Assembly (NCBI RefSeq): GCF_030684315.1 | Contig: NC_081369.1 | Coordinates: forward strand, 57,516,477 to 57,580,476 | DNA: 64,000 bases | From: Stegostoma tigrinum | Taxonomy: Eukaryota | Direction: 5' to 3' | In this document: positions 25,301-60,890 of the stretch, piece by piece | How positions within the stretch are numbered: position 1 is the stretch's first letter | How the letters are laid out: every line of letters starts with the position of its first letter | Notes under the pieces: generated by a model | The model's input: only the letters and a program-made list of their open reading frames with translations | The model's database searches: none | What the model was told of the DNA's origin: nothing | Translations under genes and position numbers: made by a program

Positions 25301-28300
25301 ATGGGTTTTTTCCTGACAATTGACAATAGATTCACAGTCATCATTAGATTCTTAATTCCAGATATTTATTGAATTCAAATTCCACCATCTGGCGAGATTC
25401 AAACCCGGTCACCCGGACATTACCTGAGCCTCTGGGGCTAACAGCCCAGCAATAATACCACCATGCCATCACCTCCCTATTTTATTTTTCTGTTGAAAAA
25501 TTGCATTAATTGAAAGCACCTTACACTTCGAATAAATTTGACTTGATGAACCTAGCTTTAGACAGAGGCCTTGTGGCAGTGTTACTGCCTCAGAACCAGA
25601 GGTCCCATGTCAGATTCACGATGCAATGCCTGTGTCAGGTATATTTATAACATGACTGAATGTGTTGATATGTAATCTGTCAACTCTTCCAATGACCTTT
25701 CACCATTTACAATAACCTTTGATGTGGTACTTCATCAAATGCCTTCTGGAAATTGAAATACAAAACGTCCATGGGGCCCCCCTTATCAGCAGCACGTGTT
25801 AATTCCTCAATGGACTCCCATAGTATGGTTAATTATGATTTCCATTTAATAAAACATTGTTCACATTATCTGATTACTTTAAAATTATCTAAGTGGTCTG
25901 CTGTAGTATCCTTCATAATAGCATCCTTCTAACATTTCTCCTGTGACATGTTAAACAAACTGAATTGTACTTACTCGTTTCCTGTGTCCCCATTTTGATT
26001 ATTAGTATCACATTCACTATCTCCATGATGGGACCTTCCCTGAGTTTAGGGATTTTTTGACAATTGATACTAACACATCATTGTGTCACTAGTCATTTTC
26101 TTTTCAGTTCTTTGTATGAACTCCATCTGGACTCAGGCATTTGTCAGCCTGCAGATCCAGTAATTTACTCAGTACCAATTCTCTGGTGAATGTGAGTTTC
26201 TTGGAATTCCTCCCTCCATTCCATTTCACAATTTATCACTGCTTCTAGGATGTTACTTGTATTCTCCGTAGTGAATAATCATGCAAAATACATGGTGAAT
26301 TCATCTGCCACCTCCTTAATTGCCATGATCATTTCTCTAGACTCACTTTCTATAGGATCAGTGCTCTCTTTTTTAACAGCCTTTTTAAAAATTAAGAAGT
26401 GTTCAATTTGTGTTTGTTCCTGTCTGGTTTCCTGTCAAGCTCCGATCCTGGGTGTAGCAGATTTTCAGTTGTTATATTCTGTCTAATCTTCTGCTGTGTC
26501 ATTTACCTTTGCATAATTATATGCTTTTTCTTTAAGTCTGATAATATCTTTTAGAGATGACAATGCTCCATCTTTTAGAATTTCTCTTGGCAATTGGAAT
26601 GTGCCTGTTCTGTGTATTCTGAAGTATTTCCTTCGATATCTGCCACTCTGTGATTAGTAACTTATCTTTTAACAGTATTTGACTATTCACCTGAGCTAGA
26701 TTTTCTTTCACATTCTTATAATTACATTTATTTATGTTTTATAAACAGTCTTGGACGACTCTTCTCTTCCTCAAATAGATTTAGAATTCAACTTTGATAT
26801 GGTCACTGCTCTCCAGGGGTATCTTCAATATATGATCATCATTTAACCCAATCTCATTGAATAATATCAAGCCCAGTGTATCTTGCTTTCTGCTCAGCTT
26901 TAGAACTTGGCGTTCCCAGAAACAATCACGAAAACATGCTTCAGCAAAACAAAGAACTGTGGGTGCTGAAGATCCGAAACAAAACCAGAAGTTACTGGAA
27001 AAAACCGAGCAGGTCTGGCAGCATCCGTGGAGACAAAGCAGGGCTAATGTTTCGAGATCAGTGTTCCTTCCTCAGAAGCTGCCCGACCTGCAGAGTTGTG
27101 ACCGCTATTTCTGTTTTTTGTCTAAGAACTTCTTGTCTCGGTGATCTTTGCTGAATGTATGGAACAAGCTGCGAGAGGAAGTAGTGAAGGCAGGTACAAT
27201 TGTGACACACAGAAGGTATCTGGAAGGGTGTATGAATAGGAAGGGTTGAGAGGAATGTGGGCTAAATGCTGGCATACGGGACTAGATCAGTTCGGGATAT
27301 CTGGTTGGTATGGACGAGCTGGACCAAAGGGCCTGTTTCCGTGCTGTGTAACTCCTTCTGTCTCCTCCAGTGTATGTATGTTGATTAAAATCATCGTGAT
27401 TGCTGTGCCTTTCTGACATGTTCCTGTTATTTCATCACTCAAGCTCTAAATCCACCATCTCGTTCGGTTACTGTTAGGTGGGGGGCTGTACACCTAACGT
27501 TGACGTCTTAGCTTTACCATTTCGCATCACGACTCAAACTGCTTTCTCATCTTGGTTTTCTGAACTTAGGTAGTCTCTTCTTATAACTGTCGCCTATCAA
27601 GAAATCAGTGTCTTTGCAGCGGCTAGGTGATAAAGACGGATGAAGAAAAGTAGTGAGCAGTAGTGTCATGATGTTATGGCCAGGAATGGAGACCAGTGCG
27701 CAAATGAGCTACTCCCTTTGGGTTATCTTGAATGAATGGAGAGCTTTCTCTGAATGAATCCAAGCTCTTGGACTGCACAGCCATTGTTTTCCTAGTAGCT
27801 GGCCTGTAATGATTAATTACTGCAGTAACTATATTTGACTTAATGAGGACAAAACAAGAACATAATGAGGCAAGCATTGAGGAAAATATAAACCACCCAT
27901 CCTATCGAACTCACTCTCCCCATGGGCAACATACACGCAGCAAATAGTTTTCCTCCTCCTCTTGCCCAGGGTGTAGCAGATCATTAGGATACTGCAGGAT
28001 AGATGAAGTTAAAAACATGCATTTGCCCAGTGCTCTTGCAACACTATTGTTTACAAGAAGGATGTTGTGGAACTTGAAAGAATTGAGAAAAGATTTACAA
28101 GGATGTTGCCAGGGTTTGAAGGTTTGAGCTATACGGAGAGTCTGAATAGGCTGGGATTATTTTCCCTGGAGCATCAGAGACTGAGGGGTGATCATATAGA
28201 GGTTTATAAATTTGAGGGGCATGGATAATGTGAATTGCCGAGGTCTTTTCCCCTGGGTGAGGGAGTCCAAAATTTGTGGGCATAGGTTTAAGGTGAGAGG

Positions 28301-31300
28301 GGAAAAATTTAAAAGGGACCTAAGGGGCAACTTTTTCACGCAGAGAGTGGTGCGTGTGTGGAATGAGCTGCCAGAGGAAGAGGTAGAGGCTGGTTGAGTT
28401 ACAACATTTTAAAGGCATCTGGATGGGCATACGAATAGGAAGGGTATAGAGGGATATGGGCCACATGCTGGCAATTTGGACTAGATTAATTTAGGATATC
28501 TGTTTGACATGGACGGGTTGGACCTAAAGATCTGTTTCTATGCTGTACAGCTCCATGACGCTACGACCTAGTGTTCTGCAGCCACCAAAGAACTTTTGAA
28601 GTGTAGTTACTCTTGTGAGGAAGTAAAGTTGTTGAATGTATTCCTTCAGCAATAAGCGTTGGACAATCTTTTTTGTAGTGACATTTGGGTTCATTTCAGA
28701 CTGATTGAGAATAAAGTATAGTTGAGAACTGTCTTCAGATTTGAACTCCAAATTGACATTATAAATAATGGATTAATGCTAAATATTGCTGACTGTGGCA
28801 CTCATAGAAACACCAGGTTGAGTTATTGTTGCATTAAGCAGGTACATTATTCACAAGACTGCTCAAGTGCCCTGAGGCCCTTGCACAAGCCACAGTACAC
28901 CCAGTGAATTTGCTGCAGCGTTATTTTATATTAATTGGTGGGAAAGGTGAATGAGCATCAAGCTGAAATCTTACTCAAAAGTTAGCATCTCCTGCAAAGC
29001 TGAACTCCATTAGAACTACATTGTAATTCCAGCCAAGGCATTGGAGAGGATTCTGAGCTCATGATCCACCTGATTAGCAGCAGGGGTCACACCTTGAACT
29101 AATATTTGAATATGTGTTAGCTCCAGTAAATATAGTCAAGGCGGTCGAGATGTCTATCCGGACCCTTTGCATTTCCATTCAAGGTACAAAGGAACCTTGT
29201 ATTATTGTGTGGCAAACTGAAATGCCAAGTCAGCCTTTTTATTTGCTTTAACAGGGTTTCGGGCAGCTCACAGATGATTAGGCTCCAGTAATGTCATATG
29301 ACTGCACTGAGTTTAATGAGCAGTGCAAGCATATGGGTTTCACGGTGTGAATTGAATGGATTTTTCTTTTAGCACTGATTGCTCATTGAGATAGGCTTTG
29401 AAAGAATGATTTTTCAAACCGTGCCATTGTTGCCAGCTTTAATGAGGAACACTGCCAGACCTGGCCCAGGGCCAGCTTTGGTTTGGATCCAACTTTGAAG
29501 CTTACAAAAAGCCTCACTTTATCCAAAGATTGTGAGCAGATTGATTTTCTTTTCTTTAATAAGAGGGTTAGGTTTGTGAATACAAAGGCAAGACATTGCC
29601 AGTTCCTTTTTCTGACCAAAAGAAAGAAAACAAAGGATTTGCTTGTACTTGTTATATGACTTCTACAACCTTAGACAATCCCAAAGTGCTTCAGAACCAA
29701 TTAAGTGCTTGTTCAATTGTAGTCATTGTTGCAAAGCAAGTGGATATGTCAATCAGTTTGGGCGCAATATAACCAATATGATGATAACTAGCAAATCTTT
29801 TTTCAGTGATGTTCATTGCATAACTGTTGGCCAGACCATGGAGAGTTGTTCTTTGTCAAAATACTACCATGGCAACTCTTATACCTGTTTGAAAATGCAG
29901 ACAGGACCCTTCATAAGTATTATTTTGTTATCAGTTCAGGGGTTACAAGTACTGTTGGTTAGACCAGCATTTAATGTCCATCCCTAATTGCCCAGAGGGC
30001 AATCAAAACTCGACCACACTGCTGTGGATCTGGAATCACATGTCGGCCAGACAAGGTAAAAGTGGTAGATTTCCCTCTCTAAAGGACATGAGTAATTCAG
30101 ATGGAGTTTTACAACAAATAGTTCTTGGTTACGTGGTCACCACAGACTACATTGGAAAAGTGGAGAGACTGCAGAGTTAAAGTTTCAAGTCCAGTCTATA
30201 GAGCTGGAGCTCAAAACGTCACTGAACCCAAAGCGTTAACTCTGCGGAGTTAATGCTTTGGGTTTAGTGACGTTTTGAGCTCCAGTTCTGAAGAAGGGTC
30301 GCTGGACTTGAAACTTTAACTCTACTTTCTCCGCACAGATACTGGCAGACCTGCTTAGTTTTTTCCAGCAATTTCTGTTTTTATTGTTTCTGAATTGCAG
30401 CATCCACAGTTCTCTTGTTTCTTTCACACTGGAGAAGTACTGTATAACTAAAAGTTATCTTTGCTCGGACAAGTAATCTCATTGATAATGTAAATCGACT
30501 TGTCATAGAGAGTGACTGAGAATGATCTCAGTAAGGGAGAATATTTTCACTGTACTTGTCCCAGTCACTTACCATCGTGGTATGAATCTATACGCAACGT
30601 CATTGCTTGTACATTTACATGCAGTTGTAATTCTGAAGTATACATGAAAAGACTCAGGACATGATTTTCAGAATTTAACCTGAAAAGGATTATTGAGAAA
30701 TGCTTTACCATAATTCATTGACCTTTAATCAACTGGCAGATGTGGGAGGTTTCATTTTTTCCCTGCAACGTTCATCAATTTTAACAGACTGCCGCAAGTG
30801 AATTTGTTCCTGAAATATTAAACAGCTATTTTAGCCAAGTACTTTAAATCAAAGAAATAAGTTAATTCATGTTTGACCTGCTTTTTCTATTTTCCTGTTT
30901 GCTCTTTTGTTTTTAAATTCATCACCTCGACTTTATTTCTGTTGAACATACTTTAATAATTTTTAAAAAATCATTATTAGTCTGAACGTGGGTACACAGG
31001 GCATGATTTCAAAGCTTGTAGACTTTATTTATTTTATCATCCTCATTGTTAACATGGCCACCATTTATTCCCAACGTCTAATTGCCCAGAGAACAGTTAA
31101 GGGCTAAACAGATTGCTGTGGGTCAGGGTTAGGGTTAGGATTAGGGTAAGACCATAGACCAGACAATGTGAGGACGGTCCTCCTTAAAGGACCTGAGTGA
31201 ACCAGTTGGATTTTAAGGGCCATGAGTAATGGTCACATGACTGCCACCATGTCAGCTTTTCATTCTGGTGTTTATATGAAGACCAGTCAAAGCCTTAAAA

Positions 31301-34300
31301 TGTATTAAACAGTAATAAAGTAGCAATAGACTTTAGCAGGATTTAAACAATCTAATGACCTCAGCAGAGATGGCAAATGAAATTCAATGCAGGTAACAAT
31401 GTACTAAATAGGAGCAGGAATAGGCCATTCAGCCCATTGAATCTGCTGTGCCATTTAACTAGATCTCGGATGATTGCCTACCTCTGTACCATTTCTTGCA
31501 TTATCCAGATAATCCCTTGATATTGTTAATACCTAGGGATCTCTGTCATTACTGTACTCAACGACTGAGCATCTTTTGTAGTAGAGAATACTAAAGATTC
31601 ATCACTCTCTAAGTGAATGAGTTGTTTTTCATCTCAGTCCTAATTTGACTATCTCATATTAAAATGGGAATTCAGGCATTAAAAAAAGGTGCCATACAAG
31701 GTGATAATTTTCAAAATTTTATTATCAGAGATTGCATTAAGCTCCATACATTCAGATTAAGCCAAGAGGACTCGAGTGGGTAAAGTCGGAGCAGCTTCAG
31801 ATTATATAGCTTGTATGAGGGGGTGTAGCTACAAATTTAGGGTGATAGACATAAGACAGATGTCAGAGGCAGGTTCTTTACTCAGAGAGTGGTAAGGGTG
31901 TGGAACGCCCTGCCTGCCAATGTAGTTAACTCAGCCACATTAGGGGCATTTAAACAGTCCTTGGATAAGCATATAGATGATGAAGGGATAGTGTAGGGGA
32001 ATGGGCTTAGATTAGCTCACAGGTCGGTGCAACATTGAGGGCTGAGGGCCTGTTCTGCACTATGTTGTTCTATGTTCTATGTTCTATATAGGGTGACAAC
32101 CTATATTCTAGGTCTGCTCATTGCCTTTGCAAAAATATCTGCCTGACTAATTGCTGTTATGCCATGCACTACATCCTGGTTAAGACAAAAAATATTTTCT
32201 AATTAAGATTTGCTAACTGGCCATAAACTACCCTAGCCATAAGCTAATGATAGTTGACACCACAACATATATGACATGGCTGGATGAACACAGCAGGCCA
32301 GGCAGCATCAGAGGAGCAGGAAAGCTGACGTTTCAGGCCTAGACCCTTCTTCAGCAAAAAAGGGTCCAGACCCGAAACATCAGCTTTCCCGCTCCTCTGA
32401 TGCTGCCTGGCCTGCTGTGTTCATCCAGCTCCGCACCTCGTTATCTCAAACTCAGGCATTGGCAGTTCCTACTATCTCCACATAAGACATGGCAATCAGT
32501 GGTGGGCAGCATTGCTTAATTCTACAGTCTAACCACAGTTAAAATTCCTGTGGATTCAGGAATAATCCTCAATCTTTACAGCTTTAAGCCTTTATGGTTT
32601 TAAGAATTGCTCATACATACTGTTGGCAGCGACAAACACTGGATATTCAAGTAGCCAATGGGTTAATAATAGGAGAAATCAATAATGGAGAAACAACACT
32701 TAATCATAAAGTCTTTCGCTTCAGACTTGTAGGACAAGTGCAGGAGCACATATGAGCTAGAAGCTAGTCAGTTGGCAGTTTGAGATCCCATTGGGAAGAG
32801 AGGATTTGTGGGAGCAATCCTGTTCAGAGGTCCAAGTAGGAAACAGGAAGATATCCGGGTTCCGTGAGTAAGGTTAGAAATCACTGTTGAGCTAGGGGAA
32901 TTAGTTAAATTGGTGCAGAATGGGCTGAGAAAGTTAGAATGTAAAAAGGATTACATACAGAATGAACATTCACGTTGGAGTGAGCAGACATCATGCGGTG
33001 CAGCTACACTAGGGAAACCCAGAGTGGGAGCAATAATTTAACTAGATGTCACAGAAGTCATAATGCCAAGAAACCAGAATTAGGGAAACACAACAGCCAT
33101 TTAAAATCCTAAACAGACAGAGTCTAATTGAAGAAGCTGATAAGGAGACTATTGAGACTGTCATCAGAGCAAGTGCTCCCTAATGTAAAGAAAATAGTTT
33201 TGGCTTTACCTGGGAAAGTGATGTGAATAAAAGGGTGTTGTTTATCAGGCCATGAAAGCCAGGAAGTCAATCACGTGGCCACGATAAATCATAAACTTAC
33301 ATGTTGCATTCAAACAGATGGCAGTCTACAATAACTGATGCAAATTTTAAAAAGTTGAAGGAGCAGTGCAACCTGAGAAGTCTTTAAAGGTGACACATTC
33401 AGTTGTTAAACCTATAAAAAATTAAGATTGTATGATCCTTGTTTTTTTTAATCTCTGAACTTGGTGGAGAAACTCAGCTCTTCTGGTAACATATTTGTGG
33501 AGAGAAACAGAATTAATTCAAGCCCAAATGACTGTTTTTCAAAACAGATCTGAACTGACCTGAAATAAGTCCAAAGCTGTGCAGGTTCAGTGGATTAGCC
33601 ATGCTAAATTGCCCATCGCATCCTGGGTAGATTAGCCAGGGGAAATGCACAGTTACAGGGATAGGGTAAGGAGGTGTGTCTGGGAGGGATGCTCTTCAGA
33701 CAGTTGGTGTGGACTCGATGGGCTGAATGGCCTGCTTCCATATTGTAGGGATTTTATGATTCCATGATTGTAAGAGTCATATCAGAATCAAAATGTTAAT
33801 TCTCTTTCTCTGTCTCACTAGATGTTACCAGAAGTACTGAATTTCTCCAGCGTTTTCTGTGATTATTTCAGATTTCCAGCATCCATATTATTTTGCTTTT
33901 ATTCCTTGTTTTATTTTAAGTTGAGGCATTGAATACAAAGGAAAGGAAGGAATTGGAAGCCTTTATAAATCACTGGTTAGGCCTTAATTGGCAGATTATG
34001 TCCAATTCTGACCCAACATTTCACGAAGGAAGTCAGTGCCTAAAAGAGAACATCAAACAGATTTACCATTGGACCAGGGATGATGGACTTTAGTTCTGTA
34101 AAGATGCAGTTGAATCTGGGTTGTTATCCTTGGATCAGAGCAGATTCGTGGCAGATTTAATAGGTGTCTTCAAAGTTATGAAGAGTTTGGTAGCATTTTA
34201 GAAAGAGAGAAACTGTTTTCTCTGATGGAAGGATCAGTAACCAAAAGAAAGTGATTAAGAGAATTATCAATAACGCAGGGGGAATGTGAAGAGAGTTCTT

Positions 34301-37300
34301 TTATTCAGTAGATTGCGATACCATGGAATGCAGTGCCTGTATATTGGTAGAACCTGAATCAGTGGTAATTTTCAATTCAAAATTGGATGAATTTTAAAAA
34401 AACAGGAATGTTTTACTGTGTTATGACAGAGCAGGAGTGGTAATACTAATTAGGCATTTTTTAGGAAGAATATGCATATTGGATCAAATAACATGATAAG
34501 ATTCTATGAGAGTAGTTTTCACTAAAGACAAAGTTTTATTTGAAATGTATTGATTCATGGGATGTGTACATTGTTGGCCAGGACAGCATTTTCCCATCAC
34601 TAATTGCCCTGGAGAAGGTAGCAATGGACAGGAACATAGGAAGAGGCCATTCAGCCCCTCAAGCCCGATCTGCCATTCAATGTCTGAACTGAGGTGGTGT
34701 GCTGAGAAGAGTGGTTTGTGCTGAGTAAGGAATCAAGTAGTTTTAACATCTTGGATTCAGCTGTTCATAGCTCAATTTAATTAGTCTCATTGGTGAGCAT
34801 GAGTCACGCTCTGACATGATGTGGTTTTCTATGTGTTACTTCGTGTAACAGATACCATGGAGAGTAAGGTTCTTATTGAGTGAAATATCTCAGAGTTTAT
34901 TGGCAGCTAACAAGATATGATATGTAAGAACCAAAAGAACTGCGGATGCTGTAAATCAGGAACAAAAACAAAGTTGCTGGAAAAGCTCAACAGGCCTGGC
35001 AGCATCTGTGGAGGGTTTAGTATCATAAAGGGCTTGATGAAAAAATAAAGAAAACAAACTGTTCGCATCGGCTGAAGCACAGAGAAGCAAACTTAAGATG
35101 ATTGACAAAAGAGATAAAGGCGATACATAGAAAAACTGCTTACAATTTGTTAGGATTTGGAGTGGAAGTTCTTACAGCTTAGTAGGTAGTGTCCCTATCT
35201 CTATCCCAGAAGTCCCAGCATCAAGTCCCATTCCAAGACTTGATGGCCAAGGAAGATGTGTTCAATTGTGGCCAAACTGGTGGGCTGTCATATGTTAATC
35301 CTCACAAGACGCCAATAGAGGAGCTCACACTGAGAGACCATTGCTCAGCTGTACAAGATGTGGAGTGGCGATAACTCAAGGTGCAGTCTGTGGCAAACTG
35401 CTTGAGGAGGAATTAGCTGTGGAAACATATATGTTCTATTTGTGTCATGTGCCATAAGATATGGGATAGAAATAAAGAATAAAGAACGAAAGAATTGAAA
35501 GCTGATAGGGTCATACAGATTGTTTCAATTCCAGATTGGATAAGACTGATGGAGTGATTGCTTTTTGAAAGACTGATACAGATTCCATGGATGAATGGCC
35601 TCCTTCTGTGCACTTAAATGATCTACTTGGATGAAAGGCCTGACTGGAACCTAAAATATCTCCAGTCAGCCCTTTGATGATTTGAAGTAGATGAAAGGCC
35701 CAACTTGAATCAGTATATTTGTTTCCTGATGTCCTTGGAGCACAGGGCTAAGCAAATCATAACCTTGTACACAGCACTTTAAATAAACTTTCTGTCAAAT
35801 TCAGAACATTGTACTTAGAGACCTAATGTTTAACAACATTATCACCATAAGGGTCACTTATGAGCTGACAATGAAAAAGTGATTGTTCAGAGCACACAGA
35901 AGTCATTGATTTGTTCTTGTGCTGCATGTAAGGACAAGATTGCTGAATGGTGAATCTAGAATATAAACTAGTGATTGCAATTTTTGTTTTTGGTCAATTT
36001 AATCTCCAAATCCTGGTGGGTATTATGTGATTCTGGAATGTGATTTCATAGGAACCAGCAGTTTTGCCTCGTCTCATTGTTGTTTCATCTCTTTTCTTGC
36101 CAATTTCCTCCCCTGCTGTCCTTATCCTAACCCCATCAATTCCTCGTGGGTTTCATGGTATTGCTCATTCTCAGGTGTTTCATGAAATGGCTGGTGCTGA
36201 TACATAAGTGGCACCAATTAGTTTTCGGGTTGTGAGATAATTACCAAGAGTGGAAGGTTTGGAGCAGTTCCTCATTGTTACAGCCCAGAGACAGTAAGGG
36301 CCTATTATAGTACTTCTACTTGTGAGTCAACTCTACTTTTAGAACATAGAACATAGAACATAGAACATAGAACATAGAACAGTACAGCACAGAACAGGCC
36401 CTTCAGCCCACAATGTTGCGCCGACCATTGATCCTCATGTATGCACCCTCAAATTTCTGTGACCATATACATGTCCAGCAGTCTCTTAAATGACCCCAAT
36501 GACCTTGCTTCCACAACTGCTGCTGGCAACGCATTCCATGCTCTCACAACTCTCTGCGTAAAGAACCTGCCTCTGACATCCCCTCTATACTTTCCACCAA
36601 CCAGCTTAAAACTATGACCCCTCGTGCTAGCCATTTCTGCCCTGGGAAATAGTCTCTGGCTATCAACTCTATCTATGCCTCTCATTATCTTGTATACCTC
36701 AATTAGGTCCCCTCTCCTCCTCCTTTTCTCCAATGAAAAGAGACCGAGCTCAGTCAACCTCTCTTCATAAGATAAGCCCTCCAGTCCAGGCAGCATCCTG
36801 GTAAACCTCCTCTGAACCCTCTCCAAAGCATCCACATCTTTCCTATAATAGGGCGACCAGAACTGGACGCAGTATTCCAAGTGCGGTCTAACCAAAGTTT
36901 TATAGAGCTGCAACAAGATCTCACGACTCTTAAACTCAATCCCCCTGTTAATGAAAGCCAAAACACCATATGCTTTCTTAACAACCCTGTCCACTTGGGT
37001 GGCCATTTTAAGGGATCTATGTATCTGCACACCAAGATCCCTCTGTTCCTCCACGCTGCCAAGAATCCTATCCTTAATCCTGTACTCAGCTTTCAAATTC
37101 GACCTTCCAAAATGCATCACCTCGCATTTATCCAGGTTGAACTCCATCTGCCACCTCTCAGCCCATCTCTGCATCCTGTCAATGTCCCGCTGCAGCCTAC
37201 AACAGCCCTCTACACTGTCAACGACACCTCCGACCTTTGTGTCGTCTGCAAACTTGCTGACCCATCCTTCAATTCCCTCGTCCAAGTCATTAATAAAAAT

Positions 37301-40300
37301 TACAAACAGTAGAGGCCCAAGGACAGAGCCCTGTGGAACTCCACTCACCACTGACTTCCAGCTTCACCTGATGGTGGTGTACAATTTCCAAAGTTTGCCA
37401 GTGGAGACAGTTAGGATCAAGGTCCCAATCTGTATTTTGACTTATCTGGCGGCAGGCACCTTTCACAAATTGTGATACCCTTACAGATATGAGTGCCACT
37501 AAATTATCAAAGCATGATTCAAAGAGGAGATTTACTTCCCGTAGAAGTTTGGAACAATGTAATTTTATCTGCAGTGAGATTTTGGATCAGTTAATTTGGA
37601 TAACAAGGATTTCCGACCACTTTAATAAAGGTACTTCTTTGGTAACACCACTTGTTTCAGTTTACAGTCATAAATAATGCACAGAACAGGGAAATATACA
37701 TACAAAAAATACTTGGAGCTAATATCAATGTTATTATAATCCTCAAGGCACTTCACATTGAGAGAATTACCTCAAGAATGTCTAATTATTACGCTGCTCT
37801 TGCTAGCCTGAATTGACATGGTCAGTGACCGTAGAGAAAGACTCAGTTGTCATGTGAGCCACAAACAGGACAAAAGTTGGCCTCTCAAACAATTTAACAA
37901 CCATTTGAAATGTCACAAGTTGCAGTGGGACTTAAATCCACATTCTTTAGACTTGGTATTCAGAATTCTATCAATCAAACCAAACAGATAGACTCTTACG
38001 TTGCAGTTTCTTTATGAATACTTGAGATAAGTCTAAGTGGTGTGAGTAGCCTCCGACCTATCAGTGCACCTTATGTGGTAAACTTCTCAATTTGCAGAAA
38101 ATACCATTTTTATGCATTTGCCCATTTCAGACAGGGAGATGAAGGCTAGAAACAAAAACAAAGTTGCTGGAAAAGCTCAGCAGGTTTGGCAGCATCTGTG
38201 AAAGAATAAAAAGAAGCTGCCAGACCTGCTGAGCTTTTCCAGCAACTTTGTTTTTGTTCCTGATTTACAGCATCTGCAGGTCTTTCGGTTTTTACTTAGG
38301 GAGATGAAGGCTGGTTGAGGTGGTAGTGGTGGTCATTGGGTGAGAAAGTCTGCAGTTCTCTTGTTGGGGGATGGTTTTGCTGACACGAATTTTACTTTTG
38401 TGTTCCACCACAGGATATTTGCAAAGCCCTTTGGTGCCATAAGAGTGGGCACAGATGTGAAACGAAGTTTATGCCAGCTGCAGAGGGTACAGTTTGTGGA
38501 CCCAACAAGGTAAGTGGTACATGGGCATCAGATTGCACTGTCTGCTCCACCAGCGTCTGGTCATTAATTGTGGGTTACGTTTCACTCTCGTGGAGTGCGC
38601 TAAGATTTGGGGGCAGCAGTAGGCCATTCAGCCCATCTAGTCTGCTCCACCATTCAGTGAGATCACGGCTGATCTGATAATCCTGCACTCCACTTTCCTG
38701 TCTTCTCCAGGTTTTCGGTGGCTATATTACCACCCTTGGCTGAGGTGGCAGAGCAATAACCTAATGAAACTTTTCACATATGCCCTGATGCCCCAGTGAC
38801 TTAATTTACCCCCACCCTGTTATGTTACAGACTGGGCAAGTTCTTCCTCACCTCTCTGTTGTGTTGACTGATCTCCAGCTGGCTGCAGTTGTCCCTTGGC
38901 TATATCTTGGAGAGCACCAGCTGTGCATGCCAGGTGACAGGTGGGTTCCATAGTGCCTTGTGGTGTGAGCCAAGACCTCACCTTAGTTTAACAGCTTATT
39001 GGCCAGATTCCAGCATGAGTCAGTGCCTTCAGGAGAGAAGAGAAGTAAATTGAGGGCCTATTTAAATATCTGTTTAAGAGAGAGGATAAAAAATATACCT
39101 GCATTACTATTCCGCTGCTTAGATGATCCCCCTTCAGGCTTGTCTCAACAGTGGAACTCATCAATGAGATTACAGCCCGGTGCTCTCAATATTCTTTGCA
39201 GAGGGTGCAGGTGTAAGATGGGAGGCAGCATTAAATGATAAATTGCATAGTGCAGTACTCTGCAGAACTCACAGCACAGGATGAATGCAGGCATCTTGCC
39301 AGCCTGTGGTTCTTAATGCTAATTATACTGTATCTCTATCTTCCCTAACACTTGGACTGCAAAATTCATCACATGATTATAATTCTGGTGCTACAGGGAG
39401 TCTCAAGTTGAGAGTAAACATCCCCGGTCAGTGCCAATGCAGTCATCTCAGCTGGTATCAATCAGTTAATGCCCCCTTATTTTGTTAAATGTTAATCCTC
39501 TTAGTAGAGTTAGAAATGGTGGAGCAGAATCTCAGCTGCGAAGGAAAATGTTGTTCATGTCTGTTGCCGTCTCCAGCTCAGCTGGACAGTCTGGCTTTTG
39601 AACTGAAATGCTGTCCTGCAAAAAGAAAGGGGTGCTAAGTATCCTTGCTGTCTGTTGTTTAGAGAGATATTACTAAATGGCATCACCTGTGAGCCTTTCC
39701 CTGTCGTGTAACTGAAGGCAGAAACAAACTAGCACTGTGGGTCAGTGAAACATACAGCATGTATTCAGATGGCTTTCTCATGTGCTGATTCATGGGATTG
39801 AGGTGAGGGTTGGGGGGATGGCGGGGTGGGGTTGGGGGTTTGTTGGTATGGGTGGGTTCTGACTCCTTGACTTGACCCCTGTGCTTTTGGGACTTTTTGG
39901 CCTGCGCAAGAGATCCCCGACTGGAAGGAAGATCTGGCTACCCCAGATTCCTCACAAAGCATCTTTGCTGGTAGGGAGCTTTGCATTCGCAAGGGGTTTG
40001 CATAAAGTTAGTGTTGACAAGTCTTCATAAGCTCACGCTTCTGCCTTCCTTATCATCACAGTGGTGTCGGCGAGGTCAGTGCTTGAAGTACGGAGACGAA
40101 GGCCCCAAGCCTATTAACGGTCAGTGGTCCAACTGGTCAGAGTGGTCAGAATGCTCCCGGACCTGCGATGGTGGGGTTAACTACAGGGAGAGACACTGCA
40201 ACAGCCCAAAGTAAGGAACTTCTAATCCAGCTGCTTCCTCACAGAGAATATTTTATCTCCCATCTGTAGCTTATGTCAGGAATGGGTGTGTTTTGTTGAT

Positions 40301-43300
40301 TAGACCCAATTTGTGCCATGACTGTTTCCACCACCCTCAGTATTGTTACTGTGATCCACCCAATCATAGTGGCCCCTTTTCTGTCTGCCCGGCAGCAGAA
40401 ATGGGCTTACATGATTTACTGCATTGCAAACATCCTCCATTTATCATTGAATTATTATTCGCGGGTGAGCATTTGGGAGCACACAGGATTGGCGCCAACA
40501 CACTGTGCCATATGATTCTGTATTCAAGCACTTGGTGTGTGTGTATATGTGTGTGCATGTGTTTTCATGTAAGCATTAATCAGCGAGCATAGAAAAGCCA
40601 GCTTTGATGCCAAAGTTGAAGAGTATCTGATTTAATTAAAAAGAAAAGATGTAAAACTGGCAGAAATACAGAAATTCTTTGTGAAATCTTGGGGGGGAGG
40701 GGGGTTTCGGGGGAGCCACACCCTTGGAAAGAGTACGGATATAATTTCTGGTGATTTTGAAAGCTATAGTGTTCCCTGGGCAATTTTTTGCCAATAAAGA
40801 GAAACTGTATAATACAATTATTAGAAACATCACCACCCTCTGCACTTACATGCTAGGATGAAGCAAAAATCTGCAATATCAGAGAAAATGGGAACTGCAG
40901 ATGCCGAAGAATTTGAGGTAACAATGTGTGGAGCTGGATGAACACAGCAGGCCAAGCAGCAAAGGGTCTAGGCCCGAAACGTCAGCTTTTGTGCTCCTGA
41001 GATGCTGCTTGGCCTGCTGTGTTTATCCAGCTCCACACTTTGTTAATGTGACACTATCACTGCGTAACACTCACAAAGCCAGGTTAGCAGAGGCTTGAAA
41101 TCTCACTCCTGAGACTTGAATGTATGAGAAAGGCCGAAGCTTCATCCTGTACCGAGAGAGTGCTACACTGATGGAGGTGCTGTCTTTCAGCTCACATTTA
41201 ATCCAGGGGCCTTGCCTGTCCTATTACAGAGATGTAAAAGGTTGCTGTCGCAAAGAAAATCATGGCCATTCTTCTCCATTTATCTGGACAGTATTTATCC
41301 ATTGATCGTCACCACTAAAACCAAATAACTGATTTAAGGGCGGCATGGTGGCTCAGTGGTTTGCACTGCTGCCTCACAGCGCCAGAGACCCAGGTTTCAT
41401 TCGACCCTCAGGTGACTGAATGTGTGGAGTTTGCACATTCTCCCTGTGTCTGCGTCGGCTTCCTCTGGGTGCTCTGGTTTCCTCCCGCAGTCCAAAGATG
41501 AGTAGGCTAGTTGGATTGGCTGTGCTAAATTGCCTGTAATGTTCCGGGAAGTGTAGATTAGGTGTGTTAGCCATGGGAAATGCAGGGTTACAGGGGAAAG
41601 GATAGGGGGCTGGGTCTGGGTGGGATGGTCTTCGGGGGGTTGGTTTGGATTTGTTGGGCTAGATGGACTGTTTTCAAACTATAGGGATTCTCTGGTTAAT
41701 CCCTGTTTGTGAGCACTCATGCTTAATTAGACTGTCACATTTCCTGTATTACAACAATGCAGTTTATTGCCTGTAACATTCTGAGGTTGCGAAAGGTTTT
41801 TTTACGTGCAAACATATGTTGTAACCCATAACCCTGAGTGTGTTATGTATACTTGTTGATCCTACCAGTTGGTAACTAAGACCAAGTGTTATCTTCCAAT
41901 AACAAAGAGTTGGAATCTGGGGATTTTTAGATGAACATATACACAGTTGTAACTGAGTCCAAGCATTTTGCATTTTTTCATTCCCATTATAAATGACTAA
42001 GTCGACATTCATGTCAGTAACCATCTGGTGAAAGTTGTGACATTATAATTGCAGATAACAAAGTGTGGAGTTGGTTGAACACAGCAGGCCAAGCAGCATC
42101 TCGGGAGCGCAAAAGCTGGTGTTTTGAGCCTAGACCCTTCATCAGAAAAGGGGGGATGGGGAAAGGATTCTGAAATAAATAGGGAGAGAGGGGGAGGCGG
42201 ACCGAAGATGGATAGAGGAGAAGATAGGTGGAGAGGAGAGTAGAGGTGGGGAGGTAGGGAGGGGATAGGTCAGTCCGGGGAGGATGGACAGGTCAAAAGG
42301 GGGGGGATGAGGTTAGTAGGTATGAAATGAAGGTGCGGCTTGAGGTGGGAGGAGGGGATAGGTGAGAGAAAGAACAGGTTAGGGAGGCAGGGACGAGCTG
42401 GACTGGGTTTGGGATGCAGTCGGGGGAGGGGAGATTTTGAAGCTGGTGAAATCCACATTGCTACCATTGGGCTGCAGGGTTCCCCAACTGGAATATGAGT
42501 TGCTGTTCCTGCAACCTATGGGTGGCATCATTGTGGCACTGCAGGAGGGCCAGTATGGACATGTCGTCTGAGGAATGGGAGGGGGTCTTAAAATGGTTTG
42601 TGACTGGGAGGTGCAGTTGTTTATTGCGAACCGAGCGCAGGTGTTCTGCAAAGCGGTCCCAAAGCCACTGCTTGGTTTCCCCAATGTAAAAAGGATTTTC
42701 ATGTTGATTTGGTAATTGTAATGGAAAAACCTTGACCAGAAGTGTGGGCAGTTGCAAGCTTTTTGACAAACGAAGAGCATGCCCATAGTTGCAACATTTT
42801 CTATGATTCCAGCTGGTGATATCATTGGACAGGTCTGATCCTAGACTGAAATCTGACTTGACAGATTATTGTTTGTGCACTTTTGTTTTAAGGAACTGAT
42901 CCCTTGCTGAAAAACAAGCATGCAGTCCTTCCCCTCTCCCATTTCTGAATAAGGGTCTAGGCCCCAAACATCAGCCTTCCTGCTCCTCTGATGCTTCTTG
43001 GACTGCTATGTTCGTTTAGCTTCACACCGTGTTATCTGAGATTCTCCAGCATCTGCAGTTCCTACTATCTCTGAAACAATTTTAACCTCGCTTTGAAGCC
43101 TCTTCTAAGGACTCTTCCATACCTACACTGGCCCCAAACCCCACCTCTTCCTCTGTTACATTGATGACTGTATCAGCATGGCCTCATGGACCCATGAGGA
43201 TCTTGAACAGTTCATCCACTTCGCCAACACCTTCCACCCCAAACTTAAGTTCACCTGGACCATCTCTAATAACTCTCTCTCCTTCCTGAACCTCTCTGTC

Positions 43301-46300
43301 TCCATCTCCGGCAACCACCTAGAAACCGGTATCCATTTCAAGCCCACCAACTCCCACAGCTACCTAGAAAACACCTCCTCTCACCCACCTTCCTGCAAAA
43401 CTGCCACCCATCTTCCTAATTCCTTTCCCTCCACCGCATCTGATCCCAGGTTGAGACATTCCTCTCCCGTACATCTCAGATGTCCTAATTTTTCAAGGAC
43501 CACAACTTCCCCTACTCAGTGGTCAAGAATGCCCTCGACCATGTCTCCCGCATTTCCCGCAACTCATCCCTCACACCCTCTCCCCGCAATAATAACCAAA
43601 ACAGGTACCTCACACACCACCCCACCAACCTACGGATCCAACGCATCATCCTCTGACATTTCAGCCATCTGCAATCCGACCCTGCCACCAAAGACATTTT
43701 TCCCTCCCCACCCTTATCTGCCTTCTGGAGGGGCCACTGACTGCCTTGTTTGCTCCACACTCCCCTCCAACCCCACCACACCTGGCTCTTTACCCTGCAA
43801 CCGCAGAAAGTGCTACACCTGCCCCGAAACCTCCTCCCTCACCCCCTCCCAAGCCGCAACATGACTTTCCACATTGAGCAGATGCTCACCTGCACATCTA
43901 GTAATGTGGTATATTGTATCCACTGTACCCGTTGTGGCCTCCTCTACATCAGGGAAACCAGCGAAGGCTTGGGGACTGCTTTGCAGAACACCTACTCTCG
44001 GTTCGCAATAAACAACTGCACCTCCCAGTCGCAAACCATTTCAGCCCCCCCTCCCATTCCTTAGATGACATGTCCATCCTGGGCCTCCTGCAGTGCAACA
44101 ATGATGCTACACGAAGGTTGCAGGAACAGCAACTCATATTACGCTTGGGAACCCTGCAGCCAAATGGTATCATTGTGGACTTCACAAGCTTCAAAATCTC
44201 CCCCTCCCCCACTGCATCCCAAAACCAGACCAGCTCATTCCTGCCTCCCTAACCTGTCCTTTCTCTCACCTATCCCCTCTCTTTCCTCAAGCCGCACCTT
44301 CATTTCATACCTACTAACCTCATCCCGCCTCCTTGACCTGTTCTCCCCGGACTGACCTATCTCCTCCCTACCTCCCGGCCTACACTCACCTTCCCTGGCT
44401 CCAGCTGATGCTGCTTTACCTGCTGTGTTCATCCAGCTCGACACCTTGTTATCTAAGAAATATAACAGACTGGGTTTTTAGCAGGAAAACAGAAGTTCAT
44501 TACATAAAATAAGTGAATGTAAATCAGAATAAGCTGTACTATTTCCAGATAAACATGTTCAAGTATTTGTATCTATCTGATAAAACATAATGCCCTGAAT
44601 CCTGACAGTATTCTTTGATAATACTCAAACCAAAGAGAATTTTCTTTCCTGTCACTTCTAAAGGACTTAACTTTGCTTTATTTCAGTTTATTTCAAAATC
44701 TTAAGAATCTGATTGCCTCTCCCTTGAATCACCTTACTACTGAGCTTAGACTTTCTCATCTTGGAATAACGCTTTCATAGACATAGATCAAACAAGCTTT
44801 CTGCTAGTTAAAGATATAAAAATCCAAAATAAATTATATTAGAACATATGTAAATGGCATCACATATTGGACAAAGCCTGTAATTCCATTTTTTTTACCC
44901 CATGCTATCATGTGTGTACATTGGGGTGGCAGTTTAAGTGTTTGTAGGCTGGCTGCCTGGCTGAATCACGTGCATTATTCCCTGATCTAGGTTTGAGCAT
45001 AAGGGGTGGACATGTAGCTAAAGTGTAACCAAAAAAAATCAGATTGTTCAGTAAAAGGAGAGGGAAGTTGAAACAATGGAGGTGTGTTTACACGTTGTTT
45101 CATCTGTTCTTATCAGTGAGAGAGAAAGAAGTCCAAACAATCATAAACAAATTGTTTTGTGACTTCAAAAGTGCTGTATTCTTTCAGGAAATTGTGGCTG
45201 CTGCTTGATGCAGTATTGTAAGCCTAGAAGTTGCTCCTCTTGGTTAATGATTAAATTGCTACAACTCTTGGTTATACTCTTAATCACTGCACTGTACCTC
45301 CCCCTGCCCGATTCCAAGGAATTAAAATGAAAATAGTCAGTCATTTAACTTAGATAATAAAATGTGAGGCTGGATGAACACAACAGGCCCAGCAGCATCT
45401 CAGGAGCACAAAAGCTGACGTTTCGGGCCTAGACCCTTCATCAGAGAGCAGTTAACTTACTTCACCCATCGACAATAACCTAAAACTCTGAGCAGCGCAG
45501 CTACTAAGTATGTCTTTAATTGATTCTCAGCTCTGCTCCATTCTTTACAAATGTTGATTCCTCATACTAGGTATTTGCTTCCTCGTCTTGCAATTTATAT
45601 TAATTTTCCAGATTTTGCCTTTCTCATTCTTTAGTTTTGCAATCCCTTCATGGTCTGACTCCTCCCTATCTCTGAAATTTCCTCCAGCTCCATAATCCTG
45701 CAAGATATTTAGCTTAACCACATTGGGTATCTTCAGAAATAATGGGAACTGCAGATGCTGGAGAATCCGAGATAACAAAGTGTGAAGCTGGATGAGCACA
45801 GCAGGCCAAGCAGCATCTTGTGCTCCTAAGATGCTGCTCGGCCTGCTGTGTTTATCCAGCTTCACACTTTGTTATCTGGGTATCTTCAGCATCCCTGATT
45901 TAAATCGCCATCTGTTGTTGACTATATCTTCAGCAGTCTAGGCTGTCAGCTTCTCTGCATGTCTCAATCTTTTTACCTCCCTTTAAAATATTCCTGAAAA
46001 CCTGTCTCTGACTTCTGATCATCTGCTTTCAAATCTTCTTTTGACGTTGTTGTCTAATTTGATTTTGTAACTCTCTGTAAAGTGCCTTGGTCCATCTTCA
46101 TTTTATTGTCTAAATTCAGGTTGTAATTTTCCATAGCCCATGCAACAATGTTGATAGTTCCTTGAAGGTGGAGTCACAAGTAGGCAGGAGAGTGAAGAAG
46201 GCACATATTGATCAGTGCATTGAGTAGAGGAGTTGGAATGTCATCTTGCGGTTGTACACGACCTTGGTCCGGCTACTTTTGGAACACTGCATTCAGTTCT

Positions 46301-49300
46301 GGTCTCCCTGCTTCAGGAAAAGCATTGTTAAATTTGAAAGGGTGCAGAAAAGAGTTATGAGGTTTTGAACTGCAGGGAGAGGCTGAGGCTATTTTCCCTG
46401 AAGTGCCAAAGGCTGAGGGGTTACTGATTGAGGTTTATAAAATCATGAAGGGCATGGATGGGGGTGATTAGCCAAGGTCTTTTCCCCAGGTTTGGGGAGT
46501 CCAAAACTAGGGGTATAGGTTTGAGATGAGAAGGGAAAGATATAAAAGGGACTGAAGGGGCAACATTTTCATGCTGAGGGTGTGGGTGTATGGAATGAGC
46601 TGCCAGAGAAAGTGGTGGAGGCTGGTATGATTACAACATTTAAAAGGCATCTGGATGGGGATATGAATAGGAAGAGTTCAAAGGAGTATGGGCCAAATGC
46701 TGGCAAATGGGACCAGATTAATTTATGATACCTTATTGGCTTGAATGAATTGGGTCTAAGGTTCTGCTTTATGCTGTACAACTCTATGACCCTCTGTATG
46801 TCTGCTCAAGATCATTTTGAGGAAGATAAGTCCACATTTTCCCACTGGTTTAAATAGCTTGTGACTTCCAAATATGTGGATCAGTCTTGAGACCTATTTT
46901 TCTTGGTTGCTTCACCTCTGCTGATGGCCTCAGTTCATTGCAAAGGCTGAAGGTGTAATTTGACCAGATCTTGGCATAATTTAACCGTGATTTCTTCTGA
47001 CTTCTCCCCTATTGTTTTGGATATGGAGCTGAACATTTAATTAACTTGGTTGACTACTGCACCATTCTATTTGGACGTGTTGGGAGAGTTTTTAATCTTC
47101 AGGATAGAGGACAGGTGGAGCAGTAACAATTGTGATACACTTAAACCAGCTGACAACCCAGTCATGTATAGTTGTAATGGAATTAGTAGAGGGGTCAACC
47201 AATCCACTCTCAGAAGCCAAAATAGCAGCTAAAATCTTTTAAGCAGGCATTATTTTAAGCAAAGTTTTGCCTTTGTCACTGGAAGCAGTCATCCTGACAG
47301 GCACGAAGAAATGAAGAGAACCAATCCCCAAAGAAAAATAGATTTCCAGCACTACCTGTGGGTTGAGGGAGCAAGGAGTGTTTTTTTCTAGTTCAAAACA
47401 GGCTTATTTTCACATGTTCTGATTATACTCATTTGCTTCGATTGTCTCCCCCTCAGTTGATCAACATTTTCACACTCTTTTTTTTTTGGAGACTATGTGG
47501 AAAAATCCGTAATTTCTGACTTCCAACCTGAAAATCACTTATCCCACCTCTCTGCCTTTTCCTCTATGAGGTGGTGAGTAAATGTCAAGATAACTGGGTG
47601 TGTAGTCCATCAAGATGCCATTGATGTTTCTTCAACTTTATCTTAGTTATCCTGTGATATAAGGCATGTGATTTATACATATTAATATCATGTATACTAG
47701 AGTATGGGTTTTGAACTGGTGGCATGTGATTGATTTATTGATTGACTGTCACATGTACCAAAGTACAGTGAAAAGTATTGCTTCAAGCAGTACAGGAAGA
47801 TCACAGCAAGCAAAAGGTGTACAGATCAAAAAGACTGGTTACATTGCAGGTTATATTATTTGAGGCTACAGTCCATTCGACAGTCTGATAACAGCCAGAG
47901 AGAAGCTGTTTCTGAACCTGCTGGTACGTCTGTTCAGGCTTCTGTATCTCTGCCTGATGGAAAAGGTTGTAGGAGATCATTACCAGGGAGCAATGGGTCT
48001 ATGACGATGATGGCCGCCTCTCCCATAGCAGCGAGCCATGTAAATGGAGCCCATGGATGGAAGTTGCCTTCTGTGATGGTCTGGGCTATACATACCACCT
48101 TCTGTGGTTTCTTAAAGTCCTGGGCAAAATTGTTGTTATACCAGGCTGTTATGCGCCGGGACAGTATGCTTTCTATGGTGCATCTTTCGAAGTTGCTGAG
48201 GGAACTTATGGACATACCAAATTTCTTTTGCCACCTGAGGAAGAAGAGGCATTGTTGTACCTTCTTGACTGTTGCATTTACGTGGAAAGTCTAGGACAGG
48301 TCATGGGTTATGGTCATTCTGAGGAACTCGATGCTCTTCACCCTCTCAACCTCAGTTCTGTTGATGTAGATGGGTGAGTGTTCTCCTCCTTTCTTTCTGA
48401 AGTTGGTGAGCAGTTCTTTAATTTTGCCGACGTTGAGACAGATTGTTTTCATTGCACCACGTCACCAAAGCAAGCAATCACTCTCCTGTACTTTGACTCA
48501 TCGTTGTTAGATATCTGTCCCACTACATTGGTGTCATCAACAAACTTGTAGATGATGTTTGTTCAGAATTTGCTAATACAGTCATGGGTGTACAGGGAGT
48601 ACAGTAGGGGTCTCAGGACACATCCTTGGGGGCTCCAGTGTTGAGTGTTATTGTGGAGGGGGTGCAGTTACCTATCCTCACTGATTGCCGTCTGTGGGTC
48701 AGAAAGCTAAAGAGCCAGTTAGAGAGGGCGGAGTTGAGACCAAGGTCATGCGGTTTTGAGATCAGCCTGGAGGGGATAATGGTGTTGAAGGTGGAACTGT
48801 AGTGAATGAGCAGGAGTCTCACATAGATGTCTTTGTTGTCCAGATGTTCCAGGGATGAGTGCAGGGCTAGGGATACGGCATCCTCTGTGGACCTGTTGTG
48901 TTGATAGGCAAACTGCAGGGGATTAGGGCAGGCTTGGAGGCTGGATTTGATGTGGGCCGTGACCAGCCTCTCGAAGCACTTCATCATTATTGAAGTCAGA
49001 GCCTTTGGGCAGCAGTTATTAAAGCACAGTGCATATGTTTTCTTGGGTACGGAGATGATGGTGGTCTTCTTGAAGCAGGTGGGGACTTCAGCTTGTCGGA
49101 GGGGGAGGCTGAAGATGTCAGTGAATACCTCCACCAGTTGGTCCACACAGGACAGGAGTGCTCGGTCGGGGACACTGTCCTGGGCCCTCGTTTTCCTTGG
49201 ATTGACTCCAGGAAGACCAATCTAACATCTGAAGCAGTGACAGAGGGAACAGGTGTGTCAGTGGCTGACAGGCCAGACGTTTCCACACCGGTGGTATTCT

Positions 49301-59788: not shown

Positions 59789-60890
59789 GTAAATATTTGA
59801 ATGTGGCCACTCACGCTTTGGGAAGAGGAACGAGTGTAGAATTGTGTTCCAGACTTGTGCACAGCTAAAGTACTAGGACATTCCATCGAATTTCACCATA
59901 TTGCAGCAGACCATTTTCCTCCATTTTTCTTCCATTCACTCCACCAGCCTCTCCCCACACCTATGTTTACGTCTTGCACTATGTATAAAAGACCCATTCT
60001 GTCCCTTTCACACCTTAATTTGCACCCATTTTGCACCATCTTTCTCCACTATGAACAACCCTGTGTCTTTTTTTTACACTGGGCATCTGCCTCTGTCAAA
60101 AGTATCCAAAAAAAAGAATTCCAACACCTTTCAGTCCTGAAAAAGAGTCATAGTGGACTCAAAATTATAACTGTTTCTCTCTGCACAGATGCTGACACAC
60201 CTGCTGAGTGTCTCCAGTGTCCTCTCAAATTTCCAACATCTGCAATATTTTGCATTTATTAGACCACTTCATCGAATTGATTCAAAAACAGAAATCGCTG
60301 GAAAAGTTCAGCAGGTCTGACAGCATCAGTCGAGAGAAATCAGAGTTCAGTGACCTTTTCTCAGAACGGATCACTCAGTTGATTGGTACTTGAGCTTCCT
60401 CCTACTCGACTTCATTTTATCGTCGTCAGCCACATTCCATTCTCCCTCACGTACCTCCTTCACTATTCACTTCACGTCCTCCTTAGGGGCAAACTCTACA
60501 TTCTCACCACTGTCCGACTTGAGGCGTTTTTCCTTCACCCTTTTTGTATTTAGAAGAATATTTTGTATTAATGACCTCTTGTTTCGGGCTCCTACACATT
60601 CGGAAACGTTTTCCCTGGATCTACCTTGCTGAGATTTCATAATTGTAAAGTCCTTTGTGGTATTGCCCCCTCGCCCTTTTCTACTCGGGAGGAGTCACAG
60701 CAAAAATATTCCAAAATAAGAACTTAAGAAATGTGATCAGGAGTAGACCACAAGGACCCCCTGAAGCCGGTTTCTGTTATTCAGTATGTTTGGGGATAAC
60801 CTTTTGCCTCAATGTCCCTCTGTCTTCCCCCTCCTCACCTCTCTGTTCCCTGAGACACCAAAGAAATACCCATCTCAGCCTTCCTGGGGA

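Follow-up and report, generated by a model that had tools for sequence, protein, structure and literature searches.

The window analysed here, a stretch of 64,000 nucleotides of Stegostoma tigrinum contig NC_081369.1 (57,516,477 to 57,580,476, forward strand), contains many short palindromes derived from Penelope-like elements (PLEs). After four weak nhmmer matches (E ≥ 0.098; near 1900, 18212, 29450, and 36771) were excluded prior to counting, 30 loci were recorded, consisting of 15 head-to-head pairs (about one per 4 kb) and 15 unpaired copies. A first-pass annotation of this DNA had listed seven palindromic mini-elements; all seven are among the pairs, and the total for the window is 15. 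All arms fall in two related short families, A and B, whose profiles cross-match, and they are 5′-truncated copies of the pseudo-long terminal repeat (pLTR) terminus of two related PLE families. The pLTRs occur in direct orientation at 42928/44398 and 13342/13463, and as inverted arms at 15 loci. Sequencing runs of four related organisms contain parts of the region (share of words 0.11–0.20), from which we estimate a divergence of ~5–7%. An assembly artefact is unlikely, because the arms differ by 3–30% and target-site duplications (TSDs) are present.

Family A arms are contiguous with two PLE copies, at 42928–44454 (+) and 42053–42700 (−). The first is a decayed, internally deleted element bearing an open reading frame (ORF), in the order 5′ pLTR with tail (described below), reverse transcriptase (RT, with YIDD), C-x4-C-x2-C linker, GIY-YIG region, 3′ untranslated region (UTR), and a deleted pLTR without tail. 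The second is a separate 5′-truncated copy that runs from the endonuclease region to a tail-less pLTR. P0001, a protein of 469 aa annotated from Rhincodon typus, is 81% identical to the RT piece in the window and maps to 43112–44249 and 42421–42688, and both segments continue into family A arms. Its Pfam match was above the cut-off for GIY-YIG and below it for RVT_1, while a Pfam search of the window's own broken PLE frames gave no match. In the Stegostoma homolog P0004, reading on through the 3′ UTR leads to the terminus of family A. A C-x4-C-x2-C linker lies upstream of the endonuclease in both the window frame 43109–43861 and P0001. Since a CX2-5CxxC linker upstream of GIY-YIG is given as a mark of the Neptune/Nematis clades in the part of PMC8557442 that deals with it, the ORF-bearing PLE appears, by its linker motif, to be of the Neptune/Nematis type, the motif being common to the two. 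The link of family B to an ORF is weaker, with an RT piece at 49787–49951 (46% identity to P0001) abutting a B arm at 49947. The Penelope origin suggested by the first-pass annotation therefore stood, the arms being contiguous with a PLE ORF; its claim to novelty needs correction, as inverted pLTRs with TSDs had already been described.

The two PLE copies belong to different subfamilies, and no shared TSD was found. Their reading as one canonical unit, 42053(−) plus 42928–44454(+), was rejected because of the missing TSD, an unrelated spacer of ~220 nt, and a similarity rank that is last or near last. At 49787–50046 (+), a PLE RT fragment is joined immediately to a hammerhead terminus of family B, by internal deletion or a template jump. 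An old GIY-YIG fragment of another PLE (53–68% identity to P0001) lies at 55431–55731 (+), with no terminus detected and a different repeat next to it.

The arms start with a minimal type I hammerhead motif that has an extra A and no helix III; arm positions are numbered here from C3 of the hammerhead core as 0. Among 20 arms chosen for presence of the core, C-T-G-A and A9 are invariant, and pairing amounts to 89% in stem II and 69% in stem I, which in family A is only ~2 bp long. Stem covariation was 0.257 against 0.193 for shuffled data (1/500), a value that is inflated by the relatedness of the arms. An Rfam scan of the window gave no match at the gathering score, hammerhead included, and at E ≤ 10 the interval 19950–20460 returned no hammerhead, only generic microRNA (miRNA) hairpin and frameshift models, all below threshold. 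A 31-letter degenerate motif with 10 matches in the window had no match in metagenome or viral contigs. Most arms extend through the predicted cleavage site, and therefore uncleaved RNA would be the usual template.

The orientation of the pairs is strongly biased, with 15 head-to-head and 1 tail-to-tail. When 45 arms were placed at random in 20000 trials, close head-to-head pairs arose 0.62 times on average and 5 times at most, whereas 14 were observed within the simulated distance, in addition to one split by a later repeat. Two of the 15 unpaired copies (60132 and 60283) make up the tail-to-tail case. This sole tail-to-tail pair (60132–60367, family B, ~20 nt apart) has no significant shared TSD (p = 0.09) and probably represents two insertions.

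The outer ends of the arms lie mostly at two sites ~35 nt apart. Of 21 family A arms, 11 end at the distal site (~+127), 8 at the proximal site (~+92), and 2 early; family B ends follow a matching pattern, at ~+95 or ~+133. The ~35-nt segment between the two sites is the PLE 'tail'. In 14 of the 15 pairs (exact p = 0.0017) one arm is tailed and the other is not, the tailed arm being the left one in 6 pairs and the right one in 8. Without the three early-ending arms the proportion is 11/12 (p = 0.0098), and it would be 14/16 (binomial p = 0.002) if the copies at 42053 and 42928 were counted as a pair. The sole exception is the family A pair at 20167–20436, in which both arms are tailed and 95% complementary, and for which a TSD was not found.

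We then compared the flanks of the pairs. Element boundaries were placed post hoc from the alignment, allowing 8 nt of slack, and 1485 random position pairs searched in the identical way served as the null, with 156 swapped-flank pairs as a second control. The pair at 38133–38312 is enclosed by two identical 15-bp repeats, 38133–38147 and 38298–38312 (p = 0.002). Between them lie a tail-less family B arm on the minus strand (38148–38214), which by alignment spans +33 to +99 and ends at the proximal site, and a tailed family B arm on the plus strand (38212–38297, +49 to ~+135), the two sharing a 3-nt microhomology at 38212–38214. Exact identity was likewise found for the 13-bp repeat 45724–45736/45877–45889 and the 10-bp repeat 53232–53241/53468–53477, both around family A pairs. 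The pair at 45724–45889 consists of a tailed arm (45737–45819, −) and a tail-less arm (45818–45877, +) with ~10 nt of private 5′ sequence, joined at a 2-nt microhomology, and that at 53232–53477 of a tailed arm (53243–53369, −) and a tail-less arm (53368–53463, +) with a near-symmetric centre at the hammerhead 5′ edge.

Near-perfect repeats flank four further pairs. They are found at 4515/4750 (14/15 matches; family B pair 4515–4764, with a tailed left arm and a tail-less right arm that reaches ~16 nt further 5′), 32266/32479 (13/15; family A pair 32266–32493, with a left arm ending early at +75 and a tailed right arm), 683/926 (10/11; older family B pair 683–936, right arm tailed), and 30149/30426 (11/13; family B pair 30149–30438). 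Against the random pairs, p was 0.002–0.004 for the three perfect repeats and 4515, 0.006 for 32266, 0.011 for 683, and 0.028 for 30149. The swapped-flank controls reached a best score of 8 in one case and at least 7 in seven cases, and for this reason 30149 is the weakest of the seven repeats. The seven repeats reported by the first-pass annotation, three perfect and four near-perfect, were thus all borne out as exceeding chance.

Beyond those seven, ungapped TSDs were found at 7895/8330 and at the T-rich 33436/33903, making 9 of 15 pairs at p ≤ 0.03. The former is an 8-bp TSD around a longer family A pair (7895–8337, locus 7898), whose arms enter the 3′ UTR (left to ~−46, right to ~−130); the latter (13/14) surrounds an old family B pair (33436–33916, locus 33449) with its centre split by ~220 nt of another repeat. 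A ~14-bp TSD with a single gap (p = 0.018) encloses the family A pair at 40868–41059 (locus 40879), which has a tail-less arm with 41 nt of private 5′ sequence. In all, 10 of the 15 pairs have a significant TSD, of 8–15 bp. The family A pair at 52588–52839 (locus 52600) is borderline (10/13, p = 0.058) and carries a 10-nt templated duplication at its junction. The same search gave no significant TSD for the pairs at 1947, 13206, 20167, and 26946. Those at 1947–2149, with the junction on hammerhead stem I, and at 26946–27123, with a tailed left arm, are old family B pairs. The one at 13206–13561 has a miniature canonical PLE layout, in which an inverted tailed arm is followed by a deleted pLTR with tail and ~60 nt of ORF start, and then by a tail-less pLTR. 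Single arms at 10587, 19974, and 45352 are each flanked by their own TSD. An apparent 7-bp TSD at 6550 was rejected, since the sequence belongs to the element interior.

Several features accompany these pairs. The centre of the 33436 palindrome is interrupted at 33560–33775 by an interspersed repeat of ~220 nt, which we take to be SINE-like. The 683 palindrome lies within the 484 nt enclosed by a 101-nt inverted repeat (548–648/1133–1233, 89%) that is unrelated to the PLE arms and is possibly an older element resembling a MITE (miniature inverted-repeat transposable element), later a target of the 683 insertion. At 52588–53477, one family A subfamily has inserted three times within 900 bp, as two pairs and a single arm, a possible local hotspot.

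The inner ends of the arms are also clustered. The count comprises 46 inner ends, with the internally deleted arm at 44386 omitted. Of these, 31 fall in the interval −7 to +6 relative to the hammerhead core (15 of 22 in family A alone), 3 at +30 to +33, immediately 3′ of the predicted cleavage site, and 6 at +43 to +49. A tail-to-interior stem as the cause of this last cluster was unsupported, as none of 7 single arms folded better than shuffled sequences. All 14 junctions that were printed differ from one another. By our own reading, six have a 2–4 nt microhomology (1947, 4515, 26946, 38133, 45724, and 53232), five are blunt or have 1–4 extra bases, and three contain templated or filler pieces (7895, 30149, and 52588). 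The first-pass description of unequal arms and of a junction particular to each copy was therefore correct. At 30195–30294, the junction of the 30149 pair holds a nested second palindrome of short hammerhead-derived pieces, which suggests that template switching or snap-back took place more than once as the ends were joined. In two single family B arms (10581–10592 and 57505–57516), 6–8 nt of the arm's own 5′ end recur in inverted orientation; these may be micro-arms left by a snap-back or by a second priming that was aborted.

With CpG sites masked, the arms of one pair are more alike (identity 0.87) than arms of different loci (0.81), the value within the pair being higher in 13 of 15 cases (Wilcoxon p = 0.001). 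This likeness is consistent with a common source. Together with TSDs that surround whole pairs and the excess of head-to-head pairs over chance, it upholds the earlier proposal that each palindrome arose in one integration event.

On these grounds we consider it probable, at about 0.6, that a palindrome results from a single PLE retrotransposition, with reverse transcription primed by the two strands of a staggered cut and the two cDNAs joined end to end. The target would be cut with a stagger of 8–15 bp, and the 3′ end on each strand would serve as a primer, with synthesis beginning at the distal start site for one strand and at the proximal site for the other. These different start sites may be taken by the two subunits of a dimer, on one RNA or on two RNAs of the same source. 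Both cDNAs would usually stop at the hammerhead 5′ edge, ~90–135 nt from the start sites, where the RNA 5′ end, a splice site, or a block to RT may lie; because the start sites are only that far downstream of a strong stop, both cDNAs would usually be terminus-only. End joining of the microhomology type would then link the cDNA 3′ ends, and fill-in would yield a head-to-head palindrome within a TSD, while extension of one strand only would yield a single arm with a TSD. The anatomy of the arms, ends, and TSDs was observed in the window. Two-strand extension and the start sites have been shown in vitro in a related clade, for the Poseidon PLE of a lizard, and would apply here by analogy; we infer the coupling of start sites, the nature of the stop, and the use of one or two RNAs.

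The palindrome is a product of integration and not a unit that transposes whole, because no junction is repeated and single arms carry their own TSDs. The first-pass statement that the hairpin is the insertion unit thus holds for a single-event product and fails for a hairpin moving as such. From the single arms with TSDs it also follows that the palindrome is a frequent, not the sole, outcome. The palindromes are inert insertion scars, with no function indicated. A stricter proposal, to which we give somewhat less than even odds, is that PLE integration is an obligately asymmetric double priming, in which dimer subunits on opposite strands use opposite tail ends and both run off at the hammerhead 5′ edge. 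If true, this alone would suffice to account for inverted pLTRs, one-sided tails, and the many terminus-only palindromes, and it would replace the proposals of antisense self-priming and endonuclease trimming.

Other origins of the palindromes were weighed against two-strand priming. A self-primed hairpin or palindromic intermediate may have formed first, for example on an antisense template as for rotifer PLEs, with the endonuclease resolving it and trimming one tail. Such an intermediate was proposed in the sections cited from PMC3846280, and for the tail in those from PMC8557442. A tail on one side only, whether left or right, and the high arm likeness would both follow from it, and the nested fold-back pieces at 30149 favour it. 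It requires, however, an intermediate that was not observed, three arms end at non-canonical sites overlapping the TSD, and the two ends of the tail correspond to sites at which RT was found to start in vitro, not to sites of cleavage. We regard this origin as unlikely.

The palindromes could instead be remnants of longer canonical insertions (an inverted pLTR followed by pLTR-ORF-pLTR) that lost their interior after integration, between the direct pLTRs. The pair at 13206–13561, with its two direct pLTRs and ~60 nt of ORF start, would be an intermediate form, internal deletions are present at 42928–44454 and 49787–49951, and solo pLTRs are ascribed to recombination or deletion in the relevant part of PMC3846280. 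Yet recombination across repeats of ~100 bp would be required at 15 of 30 loci, the formation of short products is evident from single short arms whose TSDs are intact, and interior loss alone leaves the first inverted arm and the one-sided tail unexplained. Interior loss as the general origin is accordingly improbable.

A simple fold-back, in which the first cDNA snaps back and is copied into the second arm, was among the mechanisms suggested by the first-pass annotation. In five pairs (683, 1947, 7895, 26946, and 30149) the tailed arm is longer and contains the tail-less arm, as is compatible with such copying; the 1947 junction lies on stem I complementarity, and local templated pieces occur at 30149 and 52588. 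Self-annealing at ends made by L1 has been described (bioRxiv 10.1101/2024.12.14.628481, in the part cited). In four other pairs (4515, 38133, 40868, and 45724) the tail-less arm extends 10–41 nt further 5′ than the tailed arm, so that each arm has private sequence and could have been copied from its partner only if the centre was subsequently lost; the remaining pairs are symmetric or complex. Fold-back also leaves unexplained why most second arms stop at the proximal site that single arms use. Barring such a loss, plain fold-back fails on these four pairs, and it is a still more doubtful origin for the set. The other suggestion, twin priming, did not survive in its L1 form, which copies different parts of one RNA, whereas the arms here overlap.

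A MITE hairpin moved whole by a DNA transposase, or two chance insertions side by side, is very improbable despite the short, non-coding, inverted-repeat look of the palindromes, and both were rightly set aside in the first-pass annotation: in all 11 pairs that have a candidate TSD, the terminal 20-mers agree at only 3–10 of their 20 positions, leaving no in-register terminal inverted repeat, TSD length varies over 8–15 bp, no junction recurs, the arms are contiguous with a PLE ORF, and chance adjacency yields 0.62 pairs.

Several points weigh against two-strand priming, besides the five pairs with a contained arm. The sample is one window with 15 pairs, whose element boundaries were set by hand, and the inner-end clustering of family B is partly capped, as its reference starts at −5. 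Four of the 15 pairs have no detectable TSD, including the best-preserved one (20167). Local snap-back or slippage occurred at the junctions of pairs 30149 and 52588. Asymmetric deletion at the centre is a property of palindromes, and the private 5′ segments could stem from such later deletion. The likeness of arms within a pair may instead reflect subfamily age or later conversion, and in two old pairs it is no higher than average. RNA folding of single arms gave no significant fold relative to shuffles in 7 of 7 cases (z −0.7 to +1.2). The in vitro support comes from a Poseidon element, and the families here have a linker of the Neptune/Nematis type.

Apart from PLEs, two fragments with RT of the long interspersed nuclear element (LINE) type (Pfam RVT_1) were found at 36449–37363 (−) and 48613–49478 (−). 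The former holds an open frame of 304 aa and adjoins a 7-bp tandem tail at 36340–36381. A short coding stretch beside an N gap, at 59455–59715 (−), looks like an ADAMTS exon (end of TSP1 and start of the cysteine-rich region), presumably ADAMTS18-like; Pfam and PDB searches with this stretch gave no match. If the exon reading is right, the palindromes lie in or near introns of that gene. Palindromic pairs of this kind add many near-perfect palindromes to shark introns, and they are prone to being mislabelled as MITEs or miRNA hairpins, as the sub-threshold Rfam matches illustrate. For the origin of PLE inverted ends and of the one-sided tail, the literature cited here offers self-priming or endonuclease resolution. 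Each mini-palindrome retains, in ~150–450 bp, the junction left by one event together with its two ends.

The elements of the window share many features with known endonuclease-containing (EN+) PLEs: an ORF with RT and C-terminal GIY-YIG, direct and inverted 5′-truncated pLTRs, a tail, a hammerhead, and variable TSDs. TSD-flanked inverted pLTRs, a tail at one end, and opposite-strand hammerhead pairs have all been described already. Inverted pLTRs, a TSD, and an optional tail are described for Adineta vaga Pen2/Pen2a (PMC3846280; layout in PMC8557442), and the cited part of PMC8969392 likewise describes inverted pLTRs around a TSD-flanked unit with an optional tail at one end. As in Pen2/Pen2a, the 5′-truncated terminus is inverted head-to-head here, with a single TSD around the unit (8–10 bp there, 8–15 bp here), and a tail of 30–40 nt is often at one end only, as in the EN+ PLEs of PMC3846280 and PMC8557442. 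The units shown for A. vaga are usually pLTR-ORF-pLTR, whereas 15 of the 30 shark loci are pairs, mostly without an ORF, and the one-sided tail has here been counted (14/15). Neither terminus-only PLE palindromes in sharks nor a coupling of start sites was the subject of any paper found in our literature search; older papers and Repbase/Dfam, outside its scope, may describe them.

For Poseidon of Anolis carolinensis (PAc), PMC11167929 reports that in vitro the two target strands are each cut and extended by the protein, for which a dimer is predicted, and that reverse transcription starts internally at two sites, which are the two tail ends. Both PAc and the shark families have a hammerhead followed by two tail-bounding sites, and those of PAc match the outer ends found here. 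The families differ in the Neptune/Nematis-type linker, and the main text on PAc treats the strands separately, without inverted products or coupling of start sites (PMC11167929). Minimal hammerhead motifs are known from metazoan PLEs, and 'dual' minimal hammerhead ribozymes (min-HHRs) on opposite strands, 100–700 bp apart, were noted in Schistosoma in 2014 (PMC4209133). The motifs here agree with min-HHRs in the CUGA-N-GA core, an extra base before stem II, G10.1-C11.1, the lack of helix III, and palindromic 15.2–16.2 (PMC4209133); the pertinent part of PMC4209133 devotes one sentence to opposite-strand pairs and includes no TSD, tail, or junction analysis. The palindromes also resemble L1 5′ inversion by twin priming, in which both target ends prime, annealing uses short microhomology, and one TSD surrounds the inverted product (PMC2912911). 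The second priming of L1 is described there as internal, homology-guided, and on different parts of the same RNA, whereas here the sites would be terminal and element-defined, the same segment is copied twice, and there is no poly(A). A search for tandem arrays of the hammerhead unit in 29000–54000 found none. The only direct pairs found are of the pLTR type. The non-LTR retrozymes, as presented in the cited part of bioRxiv 10.64898/2026.07.22.740005, are likewise type I hammerhead sequences that are short, non-coding, and akin to PLE pLTRs, and they are also reported from one chondrichthyan. They are arranged as head-to-tail tandem repeats, whereas the shark loci are head-to-head pairs or single copies (bioRxiv 10.64898/2026.07.22.740005).

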